From: a virus | Virus record (IMG/VR): IMGVR_UViG_3300045988_123818 | Strand: one strand, 5' to 3' | Length of the DNA: 64,000 nt | Shown here: piece by piece, positions 153-24,800 of the stretch | Position numbering within the stretch: position 1 is the first letter of the stretch | How the letters are laid out: each line of letters begins with the position of its first letter | Notes under the pieces: model-generated | Databases searched by the model: none | Told to the model about the DNA's origin: nothing | The model's input: only the letters and a program-made list of their open reading frames with translations | Made by a program: the position numbers and the translations under genes

Positions 153-196
153 AATACGCAAACTTGGTCATTAAACTAAGTTTGCGTATTTTTGTA
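153..196 (+). terminator. hairpin terminator (13-bp perfect stem) overlapping a TAnnTTTG -7 box
   Basis: aatacgcaaactt (153-165) pairs perfectly with aagtttgcgtatt (178-190) and is followed by ttt. TATTTTTG at 187-194 lies 33 nt upstream of the ATG at 227. Confidence 0.55.
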
Positions 197-226: not shown

Positions 227-697
227 ATGACAAAAAATAATTACGATATTACCCGTTTGCAACGTGAGGCTCTTAGAAAAGCCTACTGTGATGTATGCAA
301 GCACTCCCGTCCGTGGAGTCAGCAAGACGCATACGTCAAGACTGCCAAGCATCCGGCTCCTCGTTATTATATCACGGCTAAAGAGGCTTACGAGAAACTT
401 CGACGCATGGCCGTTGGCGACAACTCTATTGTCGATGCTTTGGGCGATTCAAAACGTCGGCTCTACTATTCGCTTTTCGAGCGAATGAAGGAACTCTCGC
501 AGCGAAAGGAGTATGTCAACAAGTCCCTGTGGTTTCTGTGCCCTATACTTGTCTCGCTTCCGGCTCCCGAGTTCTTCTTGTCGCCACGCACGGTTAAAGA
601 TATATTTGTTAAGTACAGGCTTTATGGAAAGGATTTCCGACATCGTGAAGTGTATGGCAGTGGACGTAAAAGCAAAGCTACTGTTAACGATACTTAG
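227..697 (+). CDS. hypothetical protein (156 aa)
   Basis: Long ORF with a -7 box upstream. No motif recognised. Confidence 0.6.
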   Translation: MTKNNYDITRLQREALRKAYCDVCKHSRPWSQQDAYVKTAKHPAPRYYITAKEAYEKLRRMAVGDNSIVDALGDSKRRLYYSLFERMKELSQRKEYVNKSLWFLCPILVSLPAPEFFLSPRTVKDIFVKYRLYGKDFRHREVYGSGRKSKATVNDT

Positions 698-1136
698 TCT
701 CTTCGGTTCGCTTCCTTATAGAGGTATGGGGGTTCTGGCTAACGATAGCCTGATCCCCCACCTCACTTACAGCTTCCAACACGCCAACATTTGGCACATG
801 CTTGCCAATTTGTTTGTCCTGTGGAACATCAAGCAAAAGATGAATGTCGTGTCGGGCTTTTTGATTGCCGTAGCTGCGAGCTTCTTGCCTATGTTTACAG
901 ACAGGTCTACTGTCGGTATGTCGGGCTTGCTCTTCGCCATGTTCGGCATTATGTGGGGCAAGCGAGGCGACTTTAGAGGATGTCTTAAGGCTGGTATGCC
1001 CGTTATCCTTATAATGATGTTGATACCAGGCATTAATGGCCTGCTTCACCTTTATTGTTATTTGTTTGGTTACATTTGGTTTAAGTTGTTTTCATATACT
1101 AAGAAGGTCATTAGGTTAATAAAGAAAGGGTTTTAA
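654..1136 (+). CDS. minimal rhomboid-family intramembrane serine protease (about 161 aa, 6 predicted TM segments)
   Basis: HANIWHMLAN matches the TM2 signature H-x4-H-x3-N. GMSG matches the catalytic GxSG. LLHLYCYLFG supplies the TM6 His. The start is uncertain (ATG at 624, 654 or 726), and the ORF-track start at 513 overlaps the upstream gene. Confidence 0.75.
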   Translation: MAVDVKAKLLLTILSLFGSLPYRGMGVLANDSLIPHLTYSFQHANIWHMLANLFVLWNIKQKMNVVSGFLIAVAASFLPMFTDRSTVGMSGLLFAMFGIMWGKRGDFRGCLKAGMPVILIMMLIPGINGLLHLYCYLFGYIWFKLFSYTKKVIRLIKKGF

Positions 1137-1164
1137 TACTTTTATTCATATTTTATAATTAAGA

Positions 1165-1199
1165 AGAAGGCAGTCCGTGATGGATAGCCTTCTTTTTTT
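1165..1199 (+). terminator. rho-independent terminator between convergent genes
   Basis: agaaggc (1165-1171) pairs with gccttct (1187-1193), followed by a T7 run. Confidence 0.5.
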
Positions 1200-3861
1200 A
1201 TCTCATCTTTTCCGTAAATAGTGGCTGAAAATCCACAACCGTTCCGGCAAACGCATCCGTAGCAAGCATATTGCTTAGCTTATAACTTAAGGTGTAGTAT
1301 TTCCATGGCTTGCCGTGCAACGAATGTAGCTCACACCAGTTCCTACAATCGTTTGAGCCATATATACGTAGCGCTATCTTGCCGTTCGCCGTATCAAAGA
1401 GGTGCAATATCTGATGTATTGTCTTTAGCTGCAACGACGAACCTAACTTCAGAGGACGTGTCGTAAATGTTCCGCTATATAGTGTTGTGTCGTCATTGAT
1501 GTCTGGCTTCGATGTTAGTGATAGTACAGTCGCGTCATTGAGCTGTATGATGTTGTCGGGATAGTTATTCACCACAGCAATCACCTTTCCTGGCAACGAT
1601 GCCTTGGCGAAGGTTCCGTCATGTATCGAATATACATATTCATATTGCTCCTTGGGGTTGATGATATGCAGAAGCGAGTCACGGTAGTCGTACGCTATTA
1701 ACGAATCTCTAAGGTACCCAAGGAAGTCTCCATTGCCTACTTCAAGAAATTGCGACGGGTTGCGTCCTCGTAATTTGTCCGACACACAAGTCACCTTTCC
1801 TCCTGACACAGCCATAAGACCCTTGGCCGAAGCGAAGAATACAACACTGCCCGTTGGCGTTATCGATGCAGCATTGTTGCACACCTCGCGCGATATGGGG
1901 TAACTCGCTGCATACAATCCTTCCGAACTTACCGACATGCCATAAATGCCTTCCGTCGTGAAAACTAACAGAGGGTACTGGCCAAACTGTCCTTGTGATA
2001 TTGGCTCTGTGTTGGCTACTATGCCGAGTATGTTGCCCGTGCCTACTGTGTTGTCTCCTGAGGCTTGGAAGACAAAGGGATTGTTCACTATTGAGGTGAA
2101 TATCTGTGATGATAGAAACTCGTAGGCTGTTGGGTCTGGCGAAGGGCGGCTCACGTTCTCATTCGTAATCGTTGAATACAGAGGCAGTGTGCGGAATGCG
2201 TAGGCTCCATTAAGGCGCTCATGACGCTGTAGGGGTATACGGAAGCTTGCAGCGCTGTTTACGTCGTATACTATTACCTCGGTAGCATTCGTATCGGGAT
2301 AGTAGAACCATGAGTTGGCTACCTCTTTTAGTGTTTCTACCATGTCTGATACTACCCATGTGTCCATTGTGTCGCTTACGATGTGCACAAAATACTGCAA
2401 CCTGCAATCTCGCTGCACTATGTCCGAGTTGGCGATGAACGACGAAAAGCCTTTGAATGGATAACGCTTTACCCCAAAGAGGTTTAGTCGTTTGTTGTAC
2501 GTATACATACTCTCTGGTTTCATCGTTGTCCATCCGTAATAATCGTCTACTGACAGTTGCTCCTGTTGTAACAGTGCGCTCACTACTCCTTGCTTTATTG
2601 GCGCATCCTTCCATACTGTATTGTATATCTTATCTATCTTTACAGAGAATAGTTTAAAGAACTGTGTCTTTGCCAGCAACTCGTCTATTATCTCGTCCTC
2701 TGTCTTGAACTTTTTGGGCAATACAATATCTCTTGCCGGGAATGTCTTGAGGTTGAACACTATCTTCTTTCTTGCATTACCTCTGAATACAGCCTCGTCA
2801 TATCTCATTCCTAAGAAATCTACTACCTCTGTATTGTTTGTTTGTTCCGGATTCATGATGCTCCAATTGTCGTCTACATTAAAAGGTAGCACCTCGTCCG
2901 AAGCGAACACTACTATATCCTTCACTATGTCGCTCCACTCGTCTATGTCTTCTCCACCTACCTGATATTGCAGTTTTACGTACGAAGGACAATAGAGTAG
3001 TTTTAACGCCGAGCCTGTATCCTCCACTACCTCATGATTTTTCCATCCTACGGGCACAATGTAGTTGTTGCGTGTTATCGTAGGAAACACAGCCACGGGT
3101 GCCGATATACGTGCATAGGTACCGTCGAAAAGGCGTAGCGCAAATCGCACAAAAAAGGGGAATGCAAATGCGTTTTTCTCCTTGACAAGGTTTAGTATCA
3201 GGGATACATGGCCAGATATGGCTGTCTGCAAGTCGTCCACACGGTCGTCCTTTGGTCTGAATGTTTCGTATCTGGTGCCTGCTTCTAATGCGTTGCTACC
3301 AAGATGACTGAATGATCCGTCGTCGTTGTAGTAAGCACCAACAGTCGGATGGTCTACCAGGTAGTCTATGTCGCACAATTGGCTCTTCTTGGTTACAAGC
3401 GACTCGATGATAGGTGCTGAGGTTCGGAATTTTACCCTTGGCTTGGGCAACTCATTGCCAAGATATTTGTACGTTCCTCCTTTATATAATAGGTATGCTA
3501 AGCCTTTGTCTGTGGCCACAATAAGCGTATTGCCTACCGACGATATATTTTTAAGGCTTTTACCTATTGATATACCCTCTTGTTGGGTTTTGTCTATTGA
3601 CGATTTCTCGAAGTCTACTTTTGCAAACGTGATATTGCCCAACACCTCATCGTATAGAATGGCATTGCAGTAGTCTGGTCCTTTGTGTATGTAGACCACT
3701 TGGTTGGTAACGGTACCTGAAAGAGGGGAAGGTAATTGTATAGGGTGCATTTCGCCTGACTTATACACCATTCCTACCAACTCTACAAGTTCCGTATCAT
3801 CTGTCAACATTCCCGATGGCGATGTTGTTATTCCTTTTGAGTATGATAGCGATTTCTGCAT
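1198..3861 (-). CDS. large hypothetical protein (887 aa), probably virion-associated
   Basis: Uninterrupted 2.6-kb ORF tightly packed downstream of TerL. No catalytic motif recognised. Confidence 0.8.
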   Translation of the reverse strand: MQKSLSYSKGITTSPSGMLTDDTELVELVGMVYKSGEMHPIQLPSPLSGTVTNQVVYIHKGPDYCNAILYDEVLGNITFAKVDFEKSSIDKTQQEGISIGKSLKNISSVGNTLIVATDKGLAYLLYKGGTYKYLGNELPKPRVKFRTSAPIIESLVTKKSQLCDIDYLVDHPTVGAYYNDDGSFSHLGSNALEAGTRYETFRPKDDRVDDLQTAISGHVSLILNLVKEKNAFAFPFFVRFALRLFDGTYARISAPVAVFPTITRNNYIVPVGWKNHEVVEDTGSALKLLYCPSYVKLQYQVGGEDIDEWSDIVKDIVVFASDEVLPFNVDDNWSIMNPEQTNNTEVVDFLGMRYDEAVFRGNARKKIVFNLKTFPARDIVLPKKFKTEDEIIDELLAKTQFFKLFSVKIDKIYNTVWKDAPIKQGVVSALLQQEQLSVDDYYGWTTMKPESMYTYNKRLNLFGVKRYPFKGFSSFIANSDIVQRDCRLQYFVHIVSDTMDTWVVSDMVETLKEVANSWFYYPDTNATEVIVYDVNSAASFRIPLQRHERLNGAYAFRTLPLYSTITNENVSRPSPDPTAYEFLSSQIFTSIVNNPFVFQASGDNTVGTGNILGIVANTEPISQGQFGQYPLLVFTTEGIYGMSVSSEGLYAASYPISREVCNNAASITPTGSVVFFASAKGLMAVSGGKVTCVSDKLRGRNPSQFLEVGNGDFLGYLRDSLIAYDYRDSLLHIINPKEQYEYVYSIHDGTFAKASLPGKVIAVVNNYPDNIIQLNDATVLSLTSKPDINDDTTLYSGTFTTRPLKLGSSLQLKTIHQILHLFDTANGKIALRIYGSNDCRNWCELHSLHGKPWKYYTLSYKLSNMLATDAFAGTVVDFQPLFTEKMR

Positions 3862-3873
3862 ATCTGTTTTATT

Positions 3874-6012
3874 TTATATTGATGCCTCTGTCTTCACTCC
3901 GTCCGAATGTCCTCTCAGTCCTTCGTCTGTTCTCCACTTAGGCATTTCCATTTCATGTGTCGATACATATAGGGCTATGGCTGTTGACATCAGTACGTCG
4001 TCATGATTGCCCGAACCATCGATGTTTCCAAGCGAACCGTCCTCTTTCCTTTCGTAGATACGTAGCTCATGATACATTTCTGTGTCTGGCTCATGCCAGA
4101 GTCCATCATCCACAAAAGCCTCAAGGTTATCTATCAGCCAGCCTTTCGTTATTTTATTGGTCTGGAATCCATACTTGGCAAGCACATTGCCCGTCGTGTC
4201 CTCAGGCGACGAGCGCCTCTGGTACAGGTTGGGATAGTAGTCCGCTATCTCATTGATTATAGAGCCAAAGTGGTCGCCCTCGGTGTTGTTGTTCTTCTCG
4301 CGGTCGGCCGTGTTGCTCTCTATCACAAGCAGCGCATCGTCGTAATAGTGAGCAAGAGCTGCTGCTTTCCACGCAAGTACGTCATGTCTGCAATGTCCTC
4401 TGTATCGGGCTACCACACGTGGCTTATCCTTCATTGATGGCATCATGCCCATTCTGTCAAGCACGGTCATTACGGTATAGTCCGAAGTGGACGACTTGCC
4501 TCCAATATCCACGCTCACCACATATCTGTCTGCTACATGCAATATATTGTTGTTTGGCAAGCTCCATATCTTCAACTCGCCTTCTCCGTCTTCCCTTATC
4601 TTTATCTTTGCATTCTTTATAGCCTCCGTCGATTTCTCACCAGTGGTTACAATGTCTGCCATGTACTTAGGCTTCTTTACCTCGCCCTGCCTTAGGTCGT
4701 CTATTGAGTATGGGTTAAATACGAGTTTGCCCGAGTTTCTAAATGCCTCTTCCTCGTCGATAGGGGCCTCAGTCGCACAGAATGCGTGTGTCTTAAATTT
4801 GTTTCGGTAGTTTCTATACCAGTTGATTGCCTGGAAACAAGCTCCCTTTTCCCACATTCGCCAAAAGAATTTGCCTGTCTCTCTATATCCCTTGGGACAG
4901 GTTGAGCGGCCTTTGTTCTTTAGCAGCCACATAGCAAACTCCCTCTCGTCCTCCACTGGCTCCATGTCGTTCTCAATGATGAAGCAGGGTATGAAGATGA
5001 ATGCGTATGCGTCATTGTTCGATGGGTCCATTGCCAGTTGGCAACGGTCATAGAAGAAGCCCGAAGTTCCTCGTCCTGTTGACTCAAACACCTCTACGTT
5101 GTCTTCTTTGTTATGTATGCCGCCCGAAATTGACGAGATTACGCCTTCTGGGTCATGTTCTGGTGTCTTCTTCCAATATGCCACCTCCGAATAGTGAGCA
5201 CAGTGGAAGTTGTTACCACGCACGGCATCAAAGTTATCGAACGAGGCTACCGTCAGCGTCGAACGTCTCAACGCCTTGTTGCCATCTGTCACAATAAAGT
5301 CGTCGGGTGAGTTTTCGTATGGCGATAGCCTCAACTGTGTTCCTGGGTGTCCTATCGTCCATCCTTTCTGTCTTTCCACCGCCTTTCGGTACATCGCCTT
5401 AATCTTCTTCGATGTTCCTTTCACCTGCGACAGAACAATAGCGTTCCAACCGTCATGCCGAAAGTCTTGAATCCACTTAATATACAGCTGCGTCAATGTC
5501 GAGCCACCCCATTGTCGTGCCTTTAGGATTACCACACGTATTGCCTTTTTCTTGTGTCTCAGCTCCTCAAACAGATTGATAAGTCTTCGCTGCGGATAGT
5601 TAAGCCTGAACGGTATCATTTCACCTGATACCTTGTCCTCAATCTTATCCGTCACGAGCAATGCAAACTCTGGGTCTTCTCTGAATCTCACCTTGAATAT
5701 CTCAAAGGTCAGCAGCTTTCTTAGCTTCTGTGTGTCTTCCGAATCTTCGTCATACTCCTTGTGAAGCACTTGTATTAATACTTCTTTCATCGAGCCGAAA
5801 TGCTGTAGGTTTTTATACAGCAGGGTTCTCATGCACTCCTTCGGTACATACATCTTCGGAATGATGAAGTCTGGAATCTCAAGACATACTCTGTTCTTAA
5901 AATCATAACAACCCACACCTGTCCACGGGTCATACTCACCGAAAATTTCATCATATCGTTTCTTATTTTCGGCAAGCAATTTATCTATGTCAAGGTCGGT
6001 TATTGTCGTCAT
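3874..6012 (-). CDS. terL: terminase large subunit
   Basis: KARQWGGST resembles a Walker A motif. HYSEVAYW resembles Walker B. The RNaseH-like nuclease motifs VVSVDIGG and NHDDVLMSTAIAL are present. The 712-aa size fits. Confidence 0.85.
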   Translation of the reverse strand: MTTITDLDIDKLLAENKKRYDEIFGEYDPWTGVGCYDFKNRVCLEIPDFIIPKMYVPKECMRTLLYKNLQHFGSMKEVLIQVLHKEYDEDSEDTQKLRKLLTFEIFKVRFREDPEFALLVTDKIEDKVSGEMIPFRLNYPQRRLINLFEELRHKKKAIRVVILKARQWGGSTLTQLYIKWIQDFRHDGWNAIVLSQVKGTSKKIKAMYRKAVERQKGWTIGHPGTQLRLSPYENSPDDFIVTDGNKALRRSTLTVASFDNFDAVRGNNFHCAHYSEVAYWKKTPEHDPEGVISSISGGIHNKEDNVEVFESTGRGTSGFFYDRCQLAMDPSNNDAYAFIFIPCFIIENDMEPVEDEREFAMWLLKNKGRSTCPKGYRETGKFFWRMWEKGACFQAINWYRNYRNKFKTHAFCATEAPIDEEEAFRNSGKLVFNPYSIDDLRQGEVKKPKYMADIVTTGEKSTEAIKNAKIKIREDGEGELKIWSLPNNNILHVADRYVVSVDIGGKSSTSDYTVMTVLDRMGMMPSMKDKPRVVARYRGHCRHDVLAWKAAALAHYYDDALLVIESNTADREKNNNTEGDHFGSIINEIADYYPNLYQRRSSPEDTTGNVLAKYGFQTNKITKGWLIDNLEAFVDDGLWHEPDTEMYHELRIYERKEDGSLGNIDGSGNHDDVLMSTAIALYVSTHEMEMPKWRTDEGLRGHSDGVKTEASI

Positions 6013-6015
6013 GTC

Positions 6016-6387
6016 TTATAATCCTTCGTATTCTTTCAGTTCCTCATAGTCCGCATCCTCTATCTTCGGCACAGGCTCTGCCCCGATAGCTAACGGATCA
6101 TCTGTCTTTGTGGTCGATAACGCCACCAATTCCTGGAAGTCCTTGTTTATACCCACCGACACATCCACCTGCGACTGCTTCGGCACCACATGTTTCTGCA
6201 TGTCATGATACAGCAGCAACCAAGCTTTCGGGTCATGATCCGCAAGCTCCTCAAACAGCTCCTCAAACTTTTCCTGATTCTTCGATAGCAAATCACGGAT
6301 AAATTCCTTCTGTGCCTTCTTTCCTTTCGGCAACAGCTTCTTCCTGTTCTCCGACAAAAGAGGTATGTCGTCCAATGTCTTCACCAT
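6016..6387 (-). CDS. hypothetical acidic protein (123 aa), in the positional slot of a small terminase subunit
   Basis: Lies immediately upstream of TerL. The function is positional inference only. Confidence 0.6.
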   Translation of the reverse strand: MVKTLDDIPLLSENRKKLLPKGKKAQKEFIRDLLSKNQEKFEELFEELADHDPKAWLLLYHDMQKHVVPKQSQVDVSVGINKDFQELVALSTTKTDDPLAIGAEPVPKIEDADYEELKEYEGL

Positions 6388-8371: not shown

Positions 8372-10363
8372 TTATTGCATCAAGTATCCTTGCGCTTGTT
8401 CTACTGCCTGTTGGTTTGCCTCGGGCACTACTCCGTTCTGTGGCGCTTGCTGCCCCATTGCCTCTTGCTGCGCCCTTAGCTCTTCCATATTACTCTGCAC
8501 GTCCTGCAGCAGCTTGTCTGCAAACGGCTCATTCAGGTTCTGTAGATACTGTATGATGTTGATGGCTCCCTTGTCAAACAACATGTCAAGCTTGTCGTTT
8601 ACGTTGTTCTGATAGGTGGCTGTGGCAGCAGCGTTCTTGATAGAAATCTTGAACATTATGTCTCTTGCGCCCAGTCTGTCATACTCTATCGGGTATGTGC
8701 TATCGCTATTGAAGATGGGTCGGCCGTCCTCATAGTATTGTTTTATCGTCATGCACTTCTTCTGTGCAATATTTTCAGTAAACGATTCCATGTCTTTCAG
8801 TATCGAGTAGAGCGAGGTTGAGGCATTCTGCGACTCTTGCGCATATCTCGAGGCCGATGTTCCAGCCGTTGGCGTCTTGCCTTGCAATGCGCCCGACACA
8901 TTCGACACTTCGCGCATCAGGTTCAGCTCCATCTGCAACAGCTCGTTTGTTCCAAGATTCACGGCGTTCGACGTGATAATGTCTGGCCTTGAGTTTGGCA
9001 GCGTTGCCTTTGGCGTGTAGAATATCATTCCGTCATACTCCGTCGCTTGCTCGGCAAACTCGTCTGGTGTCATTCCGTCCAATACCTGTGTAGGGATAAG
9101 CCATACACCCTTGGCCGACGAGCGTATTGCCATGTCGTTCATTATTATCAAACGGTTTATGTATCTCTGCTGGTCTATCACGTTTGCCATGAACGGATGT
9201 ATTTCTCCGTTGATGTACGGATAGAGCTTTATCGTGAATGGATGCGACTTAAAATCGTATGGCGTCTCTCCGCTACATAGCACGGTTCCGTCTGGTGCCA
9301 TAAACGTGTAGTACCAATACTTGTCTGCCACTTTCTTTGCCGTGATATAGGCTCTGTCTTCTGGCGGTACTCCCATCAGGTCATACTGCTCCTTTCTCTT
9401 CACATTCTTCGCGTTTAGCTCTGCTATCAACACTTTGTCGTCACATTCTATGCGGAAGTAGGCATCACTTTCGTTTTTCGCTATCGGGTCGTAGCATTGG
9501 TATCTGTATTTCGTTTCAGTCGTCCACGCTTCTATTACTCTCACGTATCGTCCGCGCTTCGACGGTATATCAAATGATATGTTCGACAGGTCGTTTGTGT
9601 CGTTGTGCATAGTTCCTTCCGTCTGACTGTCGTCTGGGTCTATGTCGAATATCCTGTTCAGGTCGTCTATACTAAGTCCGTACTCGTCTTTCGCAAATTT
9701 CTTGTACAGGTCGTTTATAGACTCGTCATGCAGCACGCCTATCAGCGACAGGTCAAGGTGTCTTGGGTCTGATCCTCCTTCCCAAAACACATAGTTTGGC
9801 TCTATGTAGTCTGTCCACGAGTCTTCTATCTCCTGTGTTCTGTCTTCGTATGTCTCTCGACACACCATTACTCCTCCTACAAGGTAGTCTTCAAGCGCGT
9901 GCTTCAACAATATCTCCATCTGTGTGTTTTGCCAGTTGCATTGCATAGTGGCAGACATCATATCCGAGAGTGACTGTGAAGAGCGTGTTCTTGCAAAGCA
10001 CACTGGCTCTGTACCTTGCTTTGCGTACATTCCCACAAGTGTGTTCAATATCGACACCATCACATTGTTCGACAACGGCACAGAGCCTTTTCTTTTCAGA
10101 TATTCTCTTTCCGTCATGTCATAGTAGTATCCGTTCTTGTACACTCTCACTGTGTCGCCCCATTGGTCGCCGTAGCAGTATCTCTTGGCCCTGTCTCTAA
10201 CCATACGCACAGCCTCCAGGTTGTTCCATGCCTGCCAACATCGCTGCAGCAGCTCATAGTCCGTCTTCTTGCCCGACTGTCTCTCCTTACGTCTCCGTAC
10301 GGTGTCAAACGTCTTGCCCGAAGTCGGCATTACACGTGATAAGGTGGGTATATTTTTCTGCAT
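8372..10363 (-). CDS. portal protein candidate (663 aa)
   Basis: Supported by size, by being the first gene of the operon divergent from scaffold and capsid, and by a Gln-rich helical C-terminus. There is no motif-level proof. Confidence 0.6.
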   Translation of the reverse strand: MQKNIPTLSRVMPTSGKTFDTVRRRKERQSGKKTDYELLQRCWQAWNNLEAVRMVRDRAKRYCYGDQWGDTVRVYKNGYYYDMTEREYLKRKGSVPLSNNVMVSILNTLVGMYAKQGTEPVCFARTRSSQSLSDMMSATMQCNWQNTQMEILLKHALEDYLVGGVMVCRETYEDRTQEIEDSWTDYIEPNYVFWEGGSDPRHLDLSLIGVLHDESINDLYKKFAKDEYGLSIDDLNRIFDIDPDDSQTEGTMHNDTNDLSNISFDIPSKRGRYVRVIEAWTTETKYRYQCYDPIAKNESDAYFRIECDDKVLIAELNAKNVKRKEQYDLMGVPPEDRAYITAKKVADKYWYYTFMAPDGTVLCSGETPYDFKSHPFTIKLYPYINGEIHPFMANVIDQQRYINRLIIMNDMAIRSSAKGVWLIPTQVLDGMTPDEFAEQATEYDGMIFYTPKATLPNSRPDIITSNAVNLGTNELLQMELNLMREVSNVSGALQGKTPTAGTSASRYAQESQNASTSLYSILKDMESFTENIAQKKCMTIKQYYEDGRPIFNSDSTYPIEYDRLGARDIMFKISIKNAAATATYQNNVNDKLDMLFDKGAINIIQYLQNLNEPFADKLLQDVQSNMEELRAQQEAMGQQAPQNGVVPEANQQAVEQAQGYLMQ

Positions 10364-11372: not shown

Positions 11373-13058
11373 ATGAAACACTATCGGTTTATTAATTTTA
11401 TTAAAAGCGGACGTTTCCTTACTTGGCTCTTACTTATGCTTCTCTCCGTTGTAACTGGCGGCTCGTCGCTCATGGCTGTTGGCGACAATGTTGCGCCTCA
11501 GATTGGCGACGAGGGTCCTGACCCGGCTTCCGCTGCTGAGGCTGCTGCCAACGAACCCGTTGAGCCTGGCAAGAGCGACCTCAACAGCCCCGGTGGCAAA
11601 AAGGATGGTCAGGATTTAACGGGCTCTCAGGCTTCATCCACCCAGCTCAAAGAGGGTGACATGATTGACGATGAATGGGATAATAACATTGTCAAATTCT
11701 ACCCATACAAGACTCCGCTTCTCAGTATCGCTCGACAGGTCGCTGGTAAGGTTCCTATCAAGAACTGGACTGCCAAACACATGCGCATCGGTGGCGAAAC
11801 TCTCGATGGTAAGACTACTGCTCCAATCACTGGTGGCGACACCATCGAGCTTAACTCTACCAACTTCTCTGGTTCTCTCCGTCCGTTCTACAAGTGCTCT
11901 ACTGTCTACGTTCCCGACGTTGAGGGCTACAAGGAAGGTTCTACTACCGTGCGCGAGGGCGTTCTTCAGCTCTACGTTATCGAGTCCAACGGCAAGAAGG
12001 TCACTCTCCAGGCTACCAACGGCAAGGCTAAGGACAATGGCACTCCTGCCGACGACCTTGACAGCATGACCTGCCCCGACATTCCTTCGGGCTCTGTCTT
12101 CCTCGTTGGCTCAACTGCCGCAAGCGAGTCTCAGCTTATGGTTCCTCCTGAGAACATGCAGCCTCGCGAGAAGGAGGTTTGTGTGCAGAAGAAGCTGCTC
12201 AACATTCTCTTCACTACCGACTACGAGAAAGTACAGACCAAGGTGCCTATCACCGTCAAAGACCTCAAGGCTGATGCTATCATGAAGTACAACCTCCGCG
12301 CTGAGCGTTCTTACTGGCTTGGTACTAAACGACGCTTCAAGGTGCTCACCGAGGATGGTGCTGTAGAGGACGTTTACATTGCTGAGGGCATCTTGTCTCA
12401 GATTACCAATAAGTATGCTATTGGCGACGTTCATGAGTGGGCCGATTGGATTGCTCTCTCTAAGCTTCAGTTCACCGACTTTGCCGAGAACAACCACGCT
12501 TACGTCTTCGCTGGCAAGAACTTCATCGAGCGCATGGAGAAGATGAAGATTGACAAGGATGGCAAGAACGACATCATCAATCACGACGAGTTCGACCTTA
12601 CTTTCAAGCGCATCAAGGACACATTCGGTACTTTCGATGTTGTTTGGGATCAGACTCTCGACCTTATGCACATGGAGGACTTTGCCGTTATCATCGACCT
12701 TAAGGCGAGTCGTCGCTACGTGCGTGTTGCCAACAAGGAGCGCACCAACGACATGTCTAAGGGTGCAGGTGCTATCCGCGACGCTAAGCGTTGGATTCAC
12801 GAGGAGGCCGATTGTATCGCTCTCCGTGGCTACAACTCTATACTTGTTGGTCCTGAGGAAAAGATTTCTAAGCTTGGCGGGTCCACTCTTACCACTATCA
12901 TCTCTGCTCCCAAACTCCCCGAGACTCCGTCTAACGGCATGAAGGTTGCCCTTACCGAGGACTACGTCTCTGGCGATTTTCAGTACGACAAGGGTACCGT
13001 CTACTACTACAACGGCACCAAGTGGGAACTCTACAGTGGTCAGGACGTGGCTGCATAA
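11373..13058 (+). CDS. major capsid protein candidate (561 aa) with an N-terminal hydrophobic and acidic extension
   Basis: Lies after the scaffold gene and is followed by a strong hairpin. The segment FYPYKTPLLSIARQV resembles the conserved N-terminal motif of HK97-fold coat proteins of the SU10/DUF5309 type. That comparison is from memory. Confidence 0.7.
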   Translation: MKHYRFINFIKSGRFLTWLLLMLLSVVTGGSSLMAVGDNVAPQIGDEGPDPASAAEAAANEPVEPGKSDLNSPGGKKDGQDLTGSQASSTQLKEGDMIDDEWDNNIVKFYPYKTPLLSIARQVAGKVPIKNWTAKHMRIGGETLDGKTTAPITGGDTIELNSTNFSGSLRPFYKCSTVYVPDVEGYKEGSTTVREGVLQLYVIESNGKKVTLQATNGKAKDNGTPADDLDSMTCPDIPSGSVFLVGSTAASESQLMVPPENMQPREKEVCVQKKLLNILFTTDYEKVQTKVPITVKDLKADAIMKYNLRAERSYWLGTKRRFKVLTEDGAVEDVYIAEGILSQITNKYAIGDVHEWADWIALSKLQFTDFAENNHAYVFAGKNFIERMEKMKIDKDGKNDIINHDEFDLTFKRIKDTFGTFDVVWDQTLDLMHMEDFAVIIDLKASRRYVRVANKERTNDMSKGAGAIRDAKRWIHEEADCIALRGYNSILVGPEEKISKLGGSTLTTIISAPKLPETPSNGMKVALTEDYVSGDFQYDKGTVYYYNGTKWELYSGQDVAA

Positions 13059-13602: not shown

Positions 13603-14271
13603 ATGACTATCTCCGAAATCATCAACAAAGTAAAATGGTGTATCGACCACGAGACTCATGAGGATGCCAAGCTTGCCGACAATGGAGAGGATTCCTACAT
13701 GGATAATATCATACGTGCCAAAATCAACGACGCACGCCGATGGCTCGCCGTAGCCACCTCCCAATCCATCACCCTCTCCTCATCTCCAAGCTCCTCTTCC
13801 TCCTCCAGTGTTACAACACTCACTATCACCCCCTATGATGGCTTTTCCGACATCGCCACCATCACCATCCCCTTGTCTCTTTCCACCGTCACCTTATCTC
13901 GCGTACGTCTCTCGTCATGGCACAAGGCTGCCATACCTATTCTCGACACCTCCGACGACGCTCTGCTTATGTTCGACGAAACCGCCAAGGGTACTGTCAA
14001 CCGACCTCTCGCCACTGTCATGCAAGGCTCTCCTACGAGAATCCTTGTTCAGCCTTACACCTCTACCGACACTGCCGAGATTGTCTATATCGGTATAGCT
14101 TCCGACATCGACACTTCTTCTGATGATACCACCGTAGATATTCCAACCATCCACGAGTCTGCCTTCATCTACTACATTGCCTACCTCTTGCTTACCGCCT
14201 ACCAAGACCCACGTGCGCAAGCAATGTTCGCTATTGCAGTCCAGCTGACAGGCTCCAAACAGTCCGTATAG
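13603..14271 (+). CDS. hypothetical virion protein (222 aa) with a poly-Ser tract
   Basis: Long ORF in the packed late operon. Confidence 0.7.
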   Translation: MTISEIINKVKWCIDHETHEDAKLADNGEDSYMDNIIRAKINDARRWLAVATSQSITLSSSPSSSSSSSVTTLTITPYDGFSDIATITIPLSLSTVTLSRVRLSSWHKAAIPILDTSDDALLMFDETAKGTVNRPLATVMQGSPTRILVQPYTSTDTAEIVYIGIASDIDTSSDDTTVDIPTIHESAFIYYIAYLLLTAYQDPRAQAMFAIAVQLTGSKQSV

Positions 14272-18822: not shown

Positions 18823-21800
18823 TTAATCAATCTTATCCAAATCTTCTACAGCCTCCTGTATTATCATCTCAATATTCTTATTCGCGAAGTCCACCTGCTT
18901 CTTATCATCGGCCCACTTCTTTCTCATCGTGTTCCAATGGCGCATTCGCTTTTCCGCATTCTTGATGATATTCACCTTTCTTTGCTCAGGTGAGCCTTCG
19001 AACTTTTCCAATGCAGCAGCATTTTCAATCCTCTTCATCGTAGGCACGTTCTTCGATTTCAGCTTGTCGTTATTGGCGATAGTCTGTTCCATTTCCTCCT
19101 TGTAGTTATACCATTTGGCTTTGGTTCTCGCCATGCTCGACTGTTCTCTTGGAGTATAGAAGAGTGAGCGCAAGAATGGCACATCGCCCACTTCTATCTC
19201 GTCTGTCTTGCCAGTCGTTGCCTTTGCACCCAAGCCTGCAGTGCGTTGAGTAAATGTGCCCATACCGCCACTCCACGAACCGAAGAAATGATTGAGCATC
19301 GACGGGTCCGTTGCCCAGTCAAGAACCTCGTTGCCCTTCATTTCCGGATTACCAGGAGCTATATTGTTTGTCTTGGCGTTCACCCACTTGTTCAAGTCCA
19401 CAAGTCTTGCCGGAACATTATTATAGGCGTTCTGCCATGCCGGGTTAAGCTCTGTCTTATCGCCCGTTCGTCTTATCGGCGCACCCTTCCAGTCGTTGTT
19501 AAGCCACCATTCAATGAACGGAACTATAGCAGTAGGAGCAATACCTTCTGTAGTCATGCCAACTCCGTTTTCCAAGCTCTTTTCATAGTTCGGATTATTC
19601 AAGAAGTCCACCACCGGGAATAGCTGCGACATACATCCCACGGCATCCATAGCCATGTTTCGCTGGCTCTTCACATTCTGGGCAAATGTTTGTCCTGCTG
19701 CCAAGTCGCCAAGACTATAGAATGCTCTCAGCTCAATAGCCAACGGCACTGTCACAAATTTGTTATTGCCCACATATATACACAGGTTGTTTCTCCTGAT
19801 ATAGTCTGGTAACTCGCCATACGGGTCTTTCACGTTGCCTCTGTCCTTCTCGTCCTCATTCTGTATAATAGCATTGTTGACAGCAGCCATAATCAACGCT
19901 AAGGCAAACGGTGCAGATGTCATAGCAACAGTAGTACCCACAGGCGCACGCTTGATATTCTTTAACAGCAGGTTCGTACTCTGAATGCCAGCATTAAAGA
20001 ACATCGAGTAGTTTCTTAGGTAGCCTGCCACAAAGCCGTATGTGTTTCGCCTTGCCTTCTGCCAATCACCCATTTCTCCGTTCTTGAAGCTCTTTATAGC
20101 ATCACCCGAACCATGACGGTTGAAGTTTGTCGATACCTCCTTTGCGTCATACGCGCTTCTTGCTGCCGAACGTCCCAAGTCTCTTGATGTGCAATATGTG
20201 GCGAAGCGTGCCATATTCTCAGCCACCTCGTTCAAGCTCTCAACGTTCTCGCCCAATTTCTTAAGCAGTTCCACAGCATTAACCACAACCTTCTTCGCGC
20301 CCTTTGCCGACTCCTTTTCCACAATACTCTTGTAGCTCTTCTCCATGTCGTGCATCGAGAACAACTGAACAAAACCTGTCTCGCCGCCGTTCTCCATGAA
20401 CTCCTTGAAGTATCGCTCCATCTTCGAGTTGCCAAGCGTGCCCTCTCTGTATCGGGCATACAGTCCGAAGCCTACACCATTCTTGAAGTCTTTCATCTTC
20501 ATGCTCTTCAATCTTCCTGCGCCCTCATTGTAGAACACATTCAGCGGATTAAGCTCACCATAATAGCGTGCCCATTTCTTAGCATATCTTCCACCTTCCT
20601 TTGCCCTCACATGCGAAGATGCAAATTCCGCGTCTCTCACGATGTTTCTCATTACAAACTCCGGACTCCACGATGTTGAGGCCATAGCCATCCATCGTGT
20701 CACAGTCTGCAACCACTTTTGGCTTGCCTTGCCGTTCTCCAGCATTCCGTTCAAAGCCTGTGCCGCTCTCGGATTGCCAAGCACCACAAATCTGTGTGTT
20801 CGTCCTGCTATCTTCACGTCCACAAAGTGTTGGCTCTTGTCCTTCGCTCTTTGGAACTTGAAGCCGATGTCCGTGCTGTTGCTCAGACTCTTTGCCTCGC
20901 CCTTAGCTTGCTTGGCCCTCATGTCCGTTTCAAAGGCATCCACAATTTCTGCAACTTCATCAGCTTCGGCTCCTTCGGGAATCTTCGGATAAGCCTCCTC
21001 CCAAATGTCGTTACCGTTTCTGTCTGTGCCTATTTTTTCTACCCAAACCTTTGTCTCCTTCACAAGATTCTGCTCTCCGCTGTTTCTCACGAATCGCGCA
21101 AAGGCTTGCTTTATAGTGTTCTGCCCTCCGTTTCTTATCGCACGGTTGCCCATCAAGCCTATCTGTGCCAATATCTCCACATTGCTCAGACTCTTTCGTC
21201 CCTTGGCGTTCATCAGCGTCGTACCGATATAGTTGCTTGGGTCGCCCATTTCTGTCACATATCCGTATACGTCCTCAGCGGTAGCCTCGTCAAACTTTCT
21301 CAACGGTACATACCAGTCGAACATGCCCAATACTCCGTCATGTGTAATTTGACTTATCAGTCCACTCTCGTAGTCCGAATTTACAGAATAATCAGTAGCT
21401 GCCTTCACCTTCTTCCAGAAGTCGGCAACTGAGCCTTTCTTCATGCTTTCCATGCTCGCCTCCTGGTTCATTACCTCGTCAATAGCTCCGGCATCATCGT
21501 ATGGTGCTTTCTTGTCTGCAATACCCTGCAAGCCGTGCATACCCGAATAGTCATGCTCCTCAGCCTTGAAGTCCTTGTCCAAGTTCTTTACAATCCACTC
21601 GTCCATCTGACGGTAGTACTCTTTCAAGTCTATCTGTCCCGAGTCAAGCTTCTTTCTAAGGTCGTATTTTTCGCCCTTCCAAGCAGTCTCCAAAGCATCA
21701 ATACTATCGGATTCTTCACTCTTCACTTTTCGTTCTTCCCTTATCCAGTCTCTCACGAACAGCACACGGTTTCTCTCCAATCCATGCTTTCTAATCATAT

Positions 21801-24800
21801 ACAGATTGAAGTTCCTTATTCTGTCCTCCACCTTCTTGCCGTCGAAGCTGTCCAACACGCTCGACATAGCCTTGTCAAGCGGCTCCATATAGTGTATTTC
21901 GAAGAGCTTGGATTTGTCGCTCATCTTGCCCTCCGTGATATTTTGCATCAGATATGGATTCATCGAGCTTGCCACATCTTCAATCTTCCTGATAGACGGA
22001 TCAATAGCCTCCATCAGTTTCTTCAACGAGAGCATATTGTCCATGAAAGCCTCCGTAGCCATATAGCTATGACGGTCCAGGGCATGATGGTATCTGTCCA
22101 AAGCGGTAGCAGCACTTGGAGCCGTGCGGTAGTGTATCTCTCCGTCCGTTGTCTCCAGCCATTCCTCGCGACTCATGTTCTCGAAGTCATGGCTCTTGCC
22201 GTCGTTGTCATACAGCTCGCCGCCCTCAATCTTCGTGTACTCCGTCTTCTCATGCTCTATCTTCCACCTCACAGCCTCAGCTCTCAGCTTCCACAGCGGA
22301 CTGTCTCCATGCTTCTGCACGTTCTTCGCAAGCCACAGCATATACTTCACGTCCTTCACGTTAGGCGAAACTCTGTAGCCTATCTCATGCAGGGCATCTG
22401 TCACCTTATTCTTAATGTAGTTCCAGAATCCCGGCTCACCCTTTCCGTCCTCTGCGCTCTTGGCGATAAACTCTTCAATAGCGTCATAGAATCCAAGGTG
22501 ATTCATGTTCATCTTTTCCTTCACATAAGCTCTCAGCTCAGCATTGATAGGGTTGTCCAAGTCCATCCAAAGGTCTCTCATGTAGGAGTCAAACTTATCT
22601 CCAAGCAGTCCTCTCATACCCTTGTGTCCTACAGTCTCGTGCCAAACGGTTTTCTCCGCGGTATACGTGTCATGGATGTTCGGCATATACAGATGCACCT
22701 CGCCCGTCTTCTCGTCATACCAGCCAGTCACCTGCTTGCCGCTCTCTATATCCTTGCGCACCTTCGGGTTCTCAATCTCCTCAACCGAGTTCACCATCTT
22801 CACCTTGCCTCCAGTTCTCTTGGCAACCTTCTCCACGGTCTTGATGATACGCTCGCTCATAGCATTCGAAGCCCCTGAAGTCTTCTCAGGTGTTACAACA
22901 CCCTTGTCGTAGCTCCACCCATTCTCGTCAACATCAGCCATAGCTGCATCGTCTATAGTCTTGTTGAAGTCTTCAAGAATATCCTCAATGGCTTTATCCA
23001 TCTTGCTCTTGTCCGAAACCTCAAAGAGTTTCTTCACAGCGTCCTTCACACGTTCCCACACGCTTCGGTCTCCCTTGCGCATAAGCTCCTTTGCGAAGTT
23101 CACCACTCTGTCCATCACTCCAAGGTCAAGTGCTTTTCTCTGACGTGGGTCTGCCATCTGTGCTGCAAACTCATACTCGTCCTCAAGTCCATAGTTATTC
23201 TCTCTAAACTTCTCTTGGTTCCCAACGGCACGGTCGTATATCTCCGATATTGTCTCAACTGCCTCTATCTGTTTTTGGGTGAGCATACCGTCTGCCTTGC
23301 CGCTCTTCACAAGATGAATGGCTCCGTTCACACCCTCATGTATCATTTCATGAAGAATGGTCACAGGTAACTCTACCTTAGAAGAAGATGTTTTTACAAG
23401 TCCGTCAATAGAATATCTTATATCGCGTTCAGGCGAAGCGTAGCCCATTGGACTTGTCAGTTTGCCACTATTTATTTCATCCTGTACACCAAAGTCTACA
23501 CCAAGGCGTTTTAGCACATCGCGTGTTTGGGCAAACAGTTTTCCGAGTTCTGGGGAGGTGTTAGACTGTCTAAATATCTTTTCAACCTCTCCAAATCCGA
23601 TTTCACTTCCGGCTGACAATCCGTAAGTGTTTCTGAGATTTTCTGCTCTAACTCGTCTATAGTCAAGTTCTCTATTGATTGCAGCCAAGGCAATTCTGTC
23701 TTGTGCTTTATTTCTATGTCCTTGAAGCGTAGTCTTATTATCCGCATTAACGGACGCGAGTCTTCCAGTTCCCGCTCTCTCCGAATCTTCGCCTGTATTG
23801 CTTTCCTTTCTTCTGAGTTCATTTTCTAATTGTTTCTTTTGGTTCTCTAATACTGATTTTCGATAACGGGAAGCAAGGAAAATCTTATCTGAAACAGCTT
23901 GCATAAATTCTTCTTTGCTGTCAAAATCACTCTCTACCTCCCCAATCTCTTCATCAAACTTCTTCTCAATTCCCTCCGATGTCTTCTTGTCAACATCTTC
24001 CGGCACAACACGGCCATCGCGCTGTCCTTTCGAACCGCCCTTCGCCTTGTTATACACCTCAGCAGCGTGCTCCACTCTGTACATCACACTCTTGCCCTCG
24101 TACTTCTTCTTCAAGTATCGCTGCATTTCCTCCTCGGTCATGCCTGCCAACTTGCAAGTCAGTTTCTTTAGCTCCGCAATCACAGCCTGGCTCGTCTCGT
24201 TTCTTGTCTGACGCTCCTGTTGCTCAAAGGTCTCGTACGTGATGCCAAGGAATTTCTTCTTCTGCTCGGCACTATAACCCTCCATATCAAACGGAATAGA
24301 GTAGTCCTTCCAATCGCCTCTGACACGCACGTTGATGCCACCCTCGTTAAAGTCTACCCGCACGTTCTTCAACTCCTCCAAGTCCTTAACCGTCTGCTTA
24401 CTCTTCTTCATCATTATCGCATTGGTGTCGATAATGCGGTCGGGCATTTCCACGTCGCGCAAATCCTCGAAGAAGTCCTCTATCTTGTCGTAGTGACCGC
24501 CCAAGTCCCACTTCTCGGGATGGCCAGCCTTTGCTCGCATAGCCTCGTTGCTTATCTTGTCCACCACCACAACACGGCATACTACCTTCGTACCTGCCTG
24601 TTCGAACACGATGTCGGGCAGCTCCACCTCCGCACGTAGCACGGCGGTCTTCTCGCCCTCAATCCACTTGTCAAACTTCTTGTCCGTTGATCCTCTCGGT
24701 ATGAGAGCCACCACCCGACCGCCTTCTTCCAAGTGTTTAAATGCCTTACCCAAGTGAGCAATGGCTGTTGCTCCAGCCGTGCCGAACGGTGGGTTCATCA

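Follow-up and report, generated by a model that had tools for sequence, protein, structure and literature searches.

A predicted minimal rhomboid protease, encoded with an overlapping partner gene, in the core gene set of temperate Bacteroidales phages

Why should a bacteriophage carry a gene for an intramembrane protease, and which protein would such an enzyme cut? Natural substrates and roles of bacterial rhomboids have been established in few cases. The question is raised by an ORF near the start of IMG/VR virus record IMGVR_UViG_3300045988_123818, the whole 64,000-nucleotide stretch of which is referred to here as the window. A sequence-only reading of the window had described the product of this ORF as a phage-borne rhomboid of minimal size, with six hydrophobic segments, no extra domain and the full catalytic signature in the right order and spacing, whose start overlaps a preceding 156-aa ORF. 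The gene, its key codons and its partner are placed as follows.

624..1136, + strand: predicted minimal rhomboid intramembrane serine protease gene, 170 aa, six TM helices
780-782 (H53), 795-797 (H58), 807-809 (N62), 921-923 (S100, TCG), 1047-1049 (H142, CAC) and 1068-1070 (G149): key codons of the rhomboid
227..697, + strand: partner ORF, 156 aa, soluble and helical, phrog_27246 (no function label)
624..697, + strand: out-of-frame overlap of the partner 3' end with the rhomboid 5' end, 74 nt (44 nt if translation starts at ATG 654)

The rhomboid frame runs from ATG 624 to a TAA stop at 1134-1136. The alternative start at ATG 654, which gives 160 aa, is favoured by some gene callers; ATG 624 is the homologous start in distant relatives and is often their sole ATG. 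Two minus-strand ORFs within the gene (684..1049 and 767..1033) were unsupported and were set aside. Pfam PF01694 (Rhomboid) matched the window protein with 25.8 bits (E 1.3e-5), above the gathering cut-off of 22.6, and the same domain had already been precomputed for most homologues. Given that this match spans aa 45-134 only and stops short of the TM6 His, the case for that residue rests on its invariance in relatives and on the fold match. A search of the PDB with the family profile returned GlpG in 17 of 17 sequence matches (best E 7.9e-5), and a Foldseek search of the PDB with the AlphaFold2 model returned GlpG or iRhom, full-length, as matches 1 to 36 (probability 0.99-1.0, TM-score 0.48-0.62), while the next match had an E value above 1. 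Because both searches agree in this way, the rhomboid assignment stands far above chance. The model itself has six helices, with pLDDT 87.7 and pTM 0.82, and was built on a 106-sequence alignment; 25 close relatives alone gave pLDDT 65 and an uninformative fold search.

Each element of the catalytic signature was found in the order and spacing first described. HANIWHMLAN (nt 780-809) corresponds to H53..N62 and supplies the TM2 motif H53-x4-H58-x3-N62, GMSG spans G98-G101 with the catalytic Ser100, and LLHLYCYLFG contains His142. In a conservation alignment that took in representatives at no more than 50% identity, H53, H58, N62, G98, S100 and H142 were invariant in all 265-269 aligned non-gap members. 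The three TM2 residues (265-267 of 265-267 sequences) align with H145, H150 and N154 of GlpG; in TM4, no change was seen at G98 or at S100 (269 of 269 for each), S100 aligns with GlpG S201, and the Ser+4 residue (F104 in the window) is F or Y in 264 of 268 members, matching GlpG Y205. In TM6, H142 occurs without exception (266 of 266), position 145 is taken by C, A, S or G, and G149 is kept in 256 of 265, the latter two corresponding to G257 and G261 of the GlpG motif AHxxGxxxG. H142 was equated with GlpG H254 by position and by the full-length fold alignment, the sequence alignment with E. coli GlpG being out of register at TM6; the H. influenzae GlpG profile match covers profile positions 36-160 and includes the TM6 region. 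The L1 'WR' motif is typical of rhomboid proteases, though not universal. Among 261 family members, the aligned position is held 210 times by Arg and 43 times by His; the window has His46, and there is no conserved Trp. Loss of the catalytic Ser or His, the mark of pseudoproteases such as iRhom and derlin-like proteins, was not found among the aligned members, and because both residues are invariant the protein was not filed with them.

Hydropathy also gave six hydrophobic segments and no additional domain. Across 241 proteins, the mean number of Lys and Arg residues per protein was about 8 in the N-tail, L2, L4 and C-tail together, versus 1.3 in L1, L3 and L5. The helices that carry S100 and H142 begin at the low-charge loops L3 and L5, and each of the two residues sits 2-3 positions inside its helix. 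From this charge distribution, the Ser and the His of the six-TM core are predicted to face the same, periplasmic side of the membrane, a topology compatible with a rhomboid, with both termini cytoplasmic. Judged by sequence and model, ORF 624..1136 very probably encodes an active rhomboid protease.

A distinct activity is conceivable for so small a rhomboid. In a rhombosortase-like role, it would recognise a sorting signal at the C-terminus of a protein from phage or host, which is then cleaved or transferred to lipid. The rhombosortase model TIGR03902 describes a minimal six-TM rhomboid of similar length (154 positions) and was the sole NCBIfam model touched, with scores of 13.2 bits for the window protein, 27.1 for the homologue in Bacteroides phage BS-TP4 and 17.3 for that in BF1-TP2. 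These scores are far under the cut-off of 84, inspection by eye of the TM-containing ORFs showed no protein of the GlyGly-CTERM type, and we know of no description of rhombosortase systems in Bacteroidales. We regard this activity as extremely improbable.

The gene is phage-borne, as had been claimed, and recurs in related phages as a large family (2,230 clusters at 50% identity, proteins of 150-180 aa) found so far only in Bacteroidales phages and prophages. The sequence-only reading had also held that rhomboids fall outside standard phage gene sets; this stood insofar as PHROGs holds no family matching the rhomboid, but GenBank, NCBI RefSeq, JGI and UniProt/BFVD already label phage members of the family rhomboid or GlpG-like. 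In the literature we found no paper discussing phage rhomboids; one in phage DLP5 is listed as a moron (PMC5834331). The paper on the cultured isolates BS-TP4, BF1-TP2 and BKO1-TP3 leaves the gene unmentioned, and a recent broad review of the rhomboid superfamily mentions neither phages nor viruses. The tblastn search at E 1e-3 missed BKO1-TP3, which was recovered through its TerL.

The overlap with the preceding 156-aa ORF proved to be a family trait. A soluble partner homologue of 145-156 aa lies directly upstream of the rhomboid, overlapping it, in 105 of 105 loci, and every lineage retains the overlap (29-101 nt), which occurs in two relative frames; the partner protein of the window itself was seen on 415 contigs. 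In the window, the overlap codes for the variable C-tail of the partner and the cytoplasmic N-tail of the rhomboid. Searches with the partner ORF matched phrog_27246 only, with no Pfam, NCBIfam or PDB match, and a Pfam search of 14 partner sequences returned only noise. PDB matches of the partner profile to the designed coiled coils sc-CC-7/8 (E ~2e-4) were judged spurious, arising from repetitive helices. The partner holds two internal 'PAPxF/Y-hydrophobic-S/T' repeats, which by their sequence look like the start of an HTH.

The surroundings of the pair in the window are as follows.

153..190, + strand: terminator-like hairpin, a 16-bp stem followed by TTTTTG (-20.5 kcal/mol, z -7.5, none of 200 shuffles as stable)
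187..194, + strand: promoter-like motif TATTTTTG, 33 nt upstream of ATG 227
1161..1197, in the gap between the rhomboid gene and the convergent 887-aa gene: GC-rich hairpin with a T7 run behind it on the + strand
1198..3861, - strand: conserved virion protein of 887 aa (phrog_32516), in convergent orientation to the rhomboid; a core gene common to BS-TP4 and BF1-TP2
3874..6012, - strand: large terminase subunit (TerL); most related lineages have it immediately after the rhomboid and in the same orientation, with an overlap of 8-11 nt

The first hairpin looks like the end of an upstream unit, closed right before the partner/rhomboid pair. The motif that follows fits the Bacteroides -7 promoter consensus TAnnTTTG and is possibly the pair's own promoter, a reading made by inspection of the letters rather than by statistics. 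The hairpin at 1161..1197 folds on both strands (+ strand, -18.6 kcal/mol, z -4.1; - strand, -16.3 kcal/mol, z -4.6) and is probably a bidirectional terminator. Cultured phages yielded no megablast match to the opening 6.1 kb of the window. The window lineage thus has its pair flanked by terminator-like hairpins and convergent to TerL, an arrangement that would also suit an independently expressed accessory gene and counts against the morphogenesis explanation preferred below.

By contrast, the order partner, rhomboid, TerL, with overlapping stops and starts, holds for 14 of 15 genome loci and for the three cultured isolates alike; the window lineage differs, a separate 123-aa ORF directly preceding its TerL. 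The placement of the gene 'beside the virion module' holds for the window lineage by way of the convergent arrangement alone; in relatives the gene is usually found inside the terminase operon. In most relatives the partner occupies the position usual for a small terminase subunit, which suggests that the pair might serve mainly without proteolysis: the rhomboid and a partner that is possibly a small terminase or DNA-binding protein could anchor packaging or the assembly of procapsids at the inner membrane, or the rhomboid could act as a membrane chaperone. A long overlap kept in every lineage suggests a fixed stoichiometry, and rhomboid-like proteins can act without catalysis, iRhoms being among the fold matches. 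However, the catalytic and oxyanion residues are all invariant across about 265 sequences, and pseudoproteases lose such residues. Terminase-small-subunit family models gave no match to the partner, and in the window it is the different 123-aa ORF that precedes TerL. A chiefly non-proteolytic role is therefore very unlikely.

The phage is a temperate Prevotella/Bacteroidales gut phage, with an integrase and a close relative integrated beside host relA/spoT, and it has a P22-type portal. When its lineage was compared with those of BS-TP4 and BF1-TP2, TerL identity was only 35-39%, and the proteins still detectably common to all three were the partner, the rhomboid, TerL, the portal, a 253-aa protein, the capsid, the 887-aa protein and a giant polyvalent protein. 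The rhomboid is thus no oddity of the window but a core gene, always accompanied by its upstream ORF and usually placed in the terminase operon, and the two form a core pair of a prevalent clade of temperate Bacteroidales phages of P22-portal/SU10-capsid type. One member, BS-TP4, has been detected in 31% of a set of 930 gut viromes from China (PMC12694917).

As a host-directed protease, the rhomboid would cut inner-membrane proteins of the host to the benefit of phage or lysogen, possible targets being defence TM effectors, anti-sigma factors, transport or Tat components, and ejection proteins that superinfecting phages insert into the membrane. Unstable TM helices of various kinds are targets of bacterial rhomboids, among them orphan subunits (PMC7232013) and TatA (PMC3712462). 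The temperate lifestyle would suit such a role, as would the position of the window-lineage pair, alone between two terminator-like hairpins and with a promoter-like motif. BLASTP for TM proteins common to all three lineages found none besides the rhomboid, which likewise favours a target outside the phage. By contrast, moron genes are usually patchy, whereas this pair is universal in the clade and conserved like the structural core; it normally sits within the terminase operon with overlapping reading frames, and PADLOC defence and counter-defence models match neither the rhomboid nor the partner. Taken together, we consider host-directed proteolysis unlikely, although it deserves to be kept in view.

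Lysis proteins are the classic TM proteins encoded by phages, and a rhomboid that processed a holin, an antiholin, a membrane-tethered endolysin or a spanin could couple lysis to late gene expression as a timing regulator. Close relatives carry a lysis cassette some 4 kb upstream of the partner/rhomboid pair, in which a 4-TM holin-like protein and a GH19 endolysin are encoded along with a protein that has a lipobox-like signal at its N-terminus and a TM at its C-terminus. However, such cassettes vary by lineage (GH19 here versus an amidase in BS-TP4) and are unlinked to the rhomboid in BS-TP4 and BF1-TP2; the holin-like protein alone is shared, and solely with BF1-TP2. We know of no precedent for a phage-encoded protease controlling lysis, and hold a role in lysis timing to be quite improbable.

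A role of the rhomboid in the lytic cycle or in morphogenesis is, by our estimate, somewhat favoured. The explanation that we prefer is that a catalytically competent six-helix rhomboid, reduced to its core with a shortened L1 and without an extra domain, would reside in the host inner membrane with the Ser100/His142 dyad at those ends of helices 4 and 6 that face the periplasm. It would be made together with the overlapping soluble partner, and the operon shared with the large terminase in most relatives suggests expression late in the lytic cycle. There it would cleave a phage-encoded membrane-inserting protein during virion morphogenesis. As a whole, from late synthesis with the partner to the cut, this explanation has a chance that we put slightly short of even. 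The leading candidate for the substrate, in line with the idea in the sequence-only reading that TM-bearing ejection proteins are processed, is the following.

35639..36358, - strand: T7-gp14/P22-gp7-like ejection protein, 239 aa, candidate substrate

This ORF is termed gp14-like because of its gene context and a sub-threshold match to Pfam T7_gp14 (PF24072; 23.6 bits against a gathering cut-off of 27, E 5.5e-5, profile positions 5-157 of 187). Its gene heads an ejection operon in which ORFs of 135, 482 and 4970 aa (the polyvalent protein) follow on the same strand. Since gp14-like ejection proteins are about 180-240 aa long and come first in their operon, with larger ejection proteins after them (PMC8954989), the ORF fits in size, in its hydrophobic N-terminal region and in operon position. 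Four 25-bp copies of a spaced repeat lie upstream of the gene (36387-36542), found by pattern search and missed by Tandem Repeats Finder. The protein consists of a 23-aa leader, a Gly/Ala/Ser-rich hydrophobic helix (MIGLLGAASLGLSVGSSLFGG) and a basic cluster (KSRKAAKR), followed by the remainder of the chain. A Gly-rich helix with a basic cluster behind it predicts an N-out/C-in protein, the orientation that rhomboids cut. Under the preferred explanation, the gp14/gp7-like protein would insert in this orientation into the producer-cell membrane via its small-residue-rich N-terminal helix, and a rhomboid cut would trim or release it for loading into procapsids.

Homologues with the same N-terminal helix are present in BS-TP4 and BF1-TP2, although the gp14-like protein is less uniformly common than the other core proteins: BLASTP matched it only in BF1-TP2, and the BS-TP4 gene, split across the record ends, was recovered separately by inspection of the N-terminal helix and gene repair. 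The view that those BS-TP4 genome ends mark a pac site in the gp14-like gene was dropped; their terminal redundancy of about 135 nt looks like assembly overlap. The leader of 22-24 aa is conserved within the window lineage, whereas the BS-TP4 and BF1-TP2 proteins begin right at the hydrophobic helix although both phages keep the rhomboid, indicating that leader removal is not a universal role of the enzyme. When the published rhomboid motif (large P4, small P1, hydrophobic P2') was sought by eye, the sole good fit, VGSS/LF, fell at the cytoplasmic end of the helix, which is the wrong side. To our knowledge, T7 and P22 do without a phage rhomboid, a point against the substrate proposal. Small TM proteins diverge fast, and another conserved substrate could have evaded BLASTP. 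That the gp14-like protein itself is the substrate we therefore regard as doubtful, leading candidate though it is. Equally speculative, in our estimate, is the further suggestion that this would be the first virus-encoded intramembrane protease dedicated to virion morphogenesis, co-translated with the packaging enzymes, acting on the gp14/gp7-like protein or on a different phage TM protein, and with the partner as an adaptor or link to the terminase.

Whichever target applies, a large family with invariant catalytic residues has a constant position in the packaging operon of gut phages that are very common. The small gene, a phage-sized substrate list and three cultured temperate Bacteroides phages make the target of a minimal rhomboid directly testable, and proteins of 155-170 aa are among the smallest intact rhomboid cores, useful for studies of structure and mechanism. 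Should the morphogenesis reading prove true, cultured Bacteroides phages would provide a natural enzyme-substrate pair for bacterial-type rhomboids, one that is genetically tractable; should a host protein be the target instead, phage takeover or lysogenic conversion of a new kind would be at work in a dominant gut phylum.

Two known systems resemble the proposed cleavage. Providencia stuartii AarA removes a short N-terminal extension from pre-TatA, an N-out/C-in single-pass protein, and thereby activates TatA (PMC3712462). The gp14-like protein of the window lineage has the same order of leader, small-residue helix and basic cluster as pre-TatA. By contrast, AarA is a cellular enzyme with 7 TM helices, the phage enzyme-substrate relation is hypothetical, and the gp14-like proteins of BS-TP4 and BF1-TP2 have no leader. 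[quoted passage not shown] The window phage combines a P22-type portal with a gp14-like protein that carries a leader of 22-24 aa. The gp7 protease is, however, a host enzyme, and the primary paper cited for it concerns the soluble oligopeptidase A, whereas the enzyme considered here is phage-encoded and intramembrane, and its link to the ejection protein is one that we infer.

Among cellular rhomboids, the closest comparison is with GlpG of E. coli and H. influenzae (MEROPS S54), which shares the six-TM core fold (Foldseek probability 1.0, TM-score 0.55-0.62), the TM2 H-x4-H-x3-N, the TM4 GxSG, the aromatic residue at Ser+4, the TM6 His with its small residues, and the predicted N-in/C-in topology with the dyad toward the periplasm. 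The phage rhomboid differs in being only 12-19% identical and in having no cytoplasmic N-terminal domain, so that members of the phage family measure 155-180 aa against 192-276 aa for the GlpGs. Its L1, shortened to some 24 residues, is without the Trp of 'WR', the Arg being kept in most members and replaced by His46 in the window, and its gene, overlapped by that of the partner, belongs in most cases to a terminase operon. Among phage proteins, the 'rhomboid membrane protein' of Stenotrophomonas phage DLP5, likened here by its description, is a moron of an unrelated siphophage (PMC5834331). The GlpG-like phage proteins of BFVD ('GlpG-like / Rhomboid family [Caudoviricetes sp.]', 155-160 aa) have the same fold. 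BS-TP4 gp8, BF1-TP2 gp59 and BKO1-TP3 gp50, the last of which carries the wrong label 'glycoside hydrolase', belong to the same family at about 30% identity and show the same linkage to the partner and TerL.

The rhomboid reading frame spans 170 codons on the + strand, from the ATG at 624 to 1136, and contains all three catalytic motifs in the order and spacing that the sequence-only reading had claimed: H53-A-N-I-W-H58-M-L-A-N62 in TM2, G98-M-S100-G101 in TM4 and L-L-H142-L-Y-C-Y-L-F-G149 in TM6. A hydropathy plot resolved six hydrophobic segments (approximately residues 17-32, 53-69, 75-91, 98-112, 123-137 and 140-157) with no room for an extra domain, again as proposed, and the overlap with the preceding 156-aa ORF (227..697), also noted there, amounts to 74 nt. 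Some gene callers choose an alternative ATG at 654 (160 aa); we kept the ATG at 624 because its homologue is often the sole in-frame ATG in more distant relatives. The HMM search suggested with that reading did return a match, the Pfam Rhomboid model (PF01694) scoring 25.8 bits over aa 45-134 against a curated cut-off of 22.6. Rhombosortase was the sole NCBIfam model touched, which could argue for that identity instead, but its scores lie far below threshold.

A first search gave 34 close homologues of 150-170 aa and a profile search 470 clusters, while an exhaustive profile search of 1.84 billion representatives gave 2,230 clusters with E ≤ 1e-3, of which 757 reached E ≤ 1e-10. Most of the top 150 are full-length (~145-190 aa), a few being fragments or longer proteins. 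Among 271 aligned members, H53, H58, N62, G98, S100 and H142 are invariant in all non-fragment positions, position 104 (Ser+4, GlpG Y205) is aromatic in all but four sequences, position 145 holds a small residue and G149 hardly varies. A purely structural role of the rhomboid is contradicted by these invariant catalytic residues. With a 106-sequence profile, every one of the 17 PDB sequences matched was GlpG, the best at E 7.9e-5, and GlpG's motifs in TM2 and TM4 aligned with those of the rhomboid residue for residue. Because AlphaFold2 reached a pLDDT of only 65 with a shallow alignment, the 106-sequence alignment was used instead, and the resulting model (pLDDT 87.7, pTM 0.82) retrieved exclusively GlpG and iRhom structures as Foldseek hits 1-36 (probability about 1.0, TM-score up to 0.62, alignments of 170-190 columns), with the next hit at an E above 1. 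In 241 full-length members, Lys+Arg per region amounted to 2.9 in the N-tail, 2.5 in the TM4-5 loop and 2.2 in the C-tail, with L3 and L5 nearly devoid of them. This charge distribution predicts an N-in/C-in topology with Ser100 and His142 both on the periplasmic side, a few residues below the surface, and not on the opposite sides that would speak against a rhomboid. Taken together, the protein has every defining feature of the rhomboid family that can be tested. The rhomboid is conserved, its six-helix core keeps an intact active site and it looks active; the phage rhomboids form a compact subfamily of their own.

The window represents most of a temperate podophage genome of ~73 kb and carries the following features.

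153-190 and 1161-1197: strong hairpins flanking the gene pair formed by the 156-aa ORF (hereafter the partner) and the rhomboid, window lineage
187-194: putative Bacteroides-type -7 motif TATTTTTG, in the window
1198..3861: 887-aa virion protein
3874..6012, - strand: large terminase (TerL)
8372..10363: P22-type portal
11373..13058: capsid protein
13603..14271: SU10-type adaptor
18823..33735, - strand: 4970-aa 'polyvalent' protein with ddrB-ParB, ResIII/SNF2-type helicase and LPD38 domains in a single ORF

Judging by its appearance, the 4970-aa protein probably travels in the virion and is ejected; BS-TP4, BF1-TP2 and BKO1-TP3, cultured Bacteroides phages that carry the same rhomboid family, have homologues of 3,600-5,400 aa, one of them annotated as DarB-like antirestriction. 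In near-identical contigs of 72-75 kb, the sequence beyond the window end passes through an integrase and a GH19 lysis cassette before the partner gene is reached again. Comparison with two such relatives (L003 and L004) places an integrase, a 4-TM holin-like gene, a GH19 endolysin and more small genes in the ~9 kb between the window's end and start, and in L004 the same phage is integrated adjoining a host relA/spoT gene. The lysis cassette of L003 encodes a 149-aa protein (L003 5178-5627) laid out like a unimolecular spanin: its N-terminal hydrophobic segment ends in Cys-rich, lipobox-like residues, and a TM helix lies at its C-terminus. As for the host, the 90% cluster of the window copy includes an NCBI entry labelled 'rhomboid family intramembrane serine protease [uncultured Prevotella sp.]', Leyella (Prevotella) stercorea has the nearest copy in an isolate genome, and the remaining genome hits are Bacteroidales except for one metagenome bin labelled Eubacteriales. 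At 37508-38175 (- strand) the window also encodes a 125-aa protein that has three strong TM helices and, after it, a 97-aa ORF with weak similarity to a BS-TP4 regulator of the XRE type; the two may form an immunity or exclusion module.

A partner homologue lies directly upstream of the rhomboid and overlaps it in 89/89 loci first examined, in 15/15 genome loci and in BKO1-TP3. Its length varies between 29 and 101 nt and the two genes occur in two relative frames, indicating that the overlap has been maintained rather than inherited once. Partner, rhomboid and TerL follow in this order on one strand in 14 of the 15 genome loci and in all three cultured phages, the rhomboid stop usually overlapping the TerL start by 8-11 nt; the exception is the window lineage, whose pair faces the 887-aa gene and TerL in convergent orientation. 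The rhomboid is thus in fixed linkage with its partner, usually in one overlapping operon with TerL. Although TerL is only 35-39% identical among the lineages of the window, BS-TP4 and BF1-TP2, partner, rhomboid, TerL, portal, a 253-aa protein, capsid, the 887-aa protein and the giant protein are detectable in all of them, and a gp14-like protein is also shared, though BLASTP found it only against BF1-TP2. Other than partner and rhomboid, this shared set is virion or packaging machinery. No members of the terminase clade without the pair were found, and the next TerL relatives are ~25% identical and come from unrelated environments.

A host-directed rhomboid, acting on defence effectors, regulators or the ejection proteins of incoming phages, would suit the temperate lifestyle and the free-standing transcription unit of the window lineage, but it does not square well with a gene conserved throughout the clade within the terminase operon, and PADLOC gave no match. 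Lysis control by the rhomboid is possible, yet the lysis cassettes differ from lineage to lineage and lack a conserved link to it.

The partner belongs to phrog_27246, which has no assigned function, is predicted to be soluble, and had no relatives in Pfam, NCBIfam or the PDB. A motif, PAP-x-(F/Y)-(F/Y/W)-hydrophobic-(S/T)-xxx-A, occurs twice in it and reads like the start of an excisionase/MerR-type helix-turn-helix. The internal duplication (window 227-697) comprises HPAPRYYITAKEAYEKL and LPAPEFFLSPRTVKDIF. The second copy has a PAP-x-F core (P112, A113, P114, F116) that does not vary across lineages, and the first copy retains R46 and A54 only. By position the partner stands where a small terminase subunit is expected, and it may be this subunit, a protease adaptor or something else. 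Directly preceding TerL in the window is not the partner but a 123-aa ORF (6016-6387, - strand) weakly similar to BF1-TP2 gp71 (DUF5681), and this similarity together with its site makes it an alternative small-terminase candidate.

Substrates were sought among phage membrane proteins conserved wherever the rhomboid is conserved. The standout, albeit a doubtful one, is the gp14-like protein (35639..36358, - strand, 239 aa), whose gene heads the operon that closes with the gene for the giant protein. In the proposed mechanism, the rhomboid would be expressed late, reside in the inner membrane and cut a TM segment near its periplasmic face, and would trim or release the gp14-like protein for procapsid loading. 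If the phage trims or releases this protein with its own protease, this would account for the rhomboid travelling with the morphogenesis core. In the window protein and in its BS-TP4 and BF1-TP2 homologues alike, an N-terminal Gly/Ala/Ser-rich hydrophobic helix leads straight into a Lys/Arg cluster, from which the positive-inside rule predicts N-out/C-in insertion. Rhomboids cut substrates in this orientation, one example being TatA, cleaved by AarA (PMC3712462). A conserved leader of 22-24 aa precedes the helix in the window lineage, and we take it as part of the protein because a Met at the helix start is not conserved. The idea gains appeal from P22, whose gp14-like protein, gp7, is shortened by a protease ahead of assembly and lacks 20 N-terminal residues thereafter (PMC4992974). 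It is weakened by the BS-TP4 and BF1-TP2 proteins having no leader, by the best recognition-motif fit lying on the wrong side of the helix, and by a Pfam T7_gp14 score of 23.6 bits (E 5.5e-5) that falls short of the gathering cut-off of 27. To our knowledge, T7 and P22 do without such an enzyme, which also counts against this candidate.

Directly upstream of the gp14-like gene (36387-36542, - strand) lie four direct copies of a 25-bp element, AAAGGTACT-N6-AAAGGRGGTC, at 43-45 bp spacing, where none is expected by chance. Two to four copies occur in 34 of 80 related loci, and they may be sites bound by a regulator or packaging protein. In BS-TP4 the ends of the record, which repeat ~135 nt, cut the gp14-like gene in two, leaving gp1 as its C-terminal half.

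The gene is already named rhomboid in the GenBank records of BS-TP4 and BF1-TP2, JGI and NCBI annotate relatives as 'rhomboid family', BFVD holds 'GlpG-like' podophage proteins of the same fold, and a Stenotrophomonas phage paper lists a 'rhomboid membrane protein' as a moron (PMC5834331). PHROGs has no family for it, the paper on the three isolates does not mention the gene, phage rhomboids are absent from a 2025 review of the superfamily, and none appeared in the gut-phage papers that full-text searches returned. Among the cultured relatives, TerL is mislabelled 'tail spike protein' (PQ571277, PQ571263, PQ571269), and BKO1-TP3 gp50, the rhomboid, is annotated 'glycoside hydrolase'. What appears to be newly seen is the family-level picture of a minimal rhomboid as a core gene, with an obligate overlapping partner and terminase linkage, in a phage clade that is very common in the gut. 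Rhomboids as such are an ordinary class of enzyme, the genomic context here is unusual, and the question is experimentally accessible.

The phage rhomboid resembles GlpG in the predicted depth of its Ser and His under the periplasmic surface. Unlike GlpG, it has no cytoplasmic domain, and its L1 is ~24 residues long and lacks the Trp of the 'WR' motif, whereas the Arg is retained in most of the phage family, the window copy having His46. Even compared with H. influenzae GlpG (192-196 aa), which is among the hits, it is 20-35 residues shorter.
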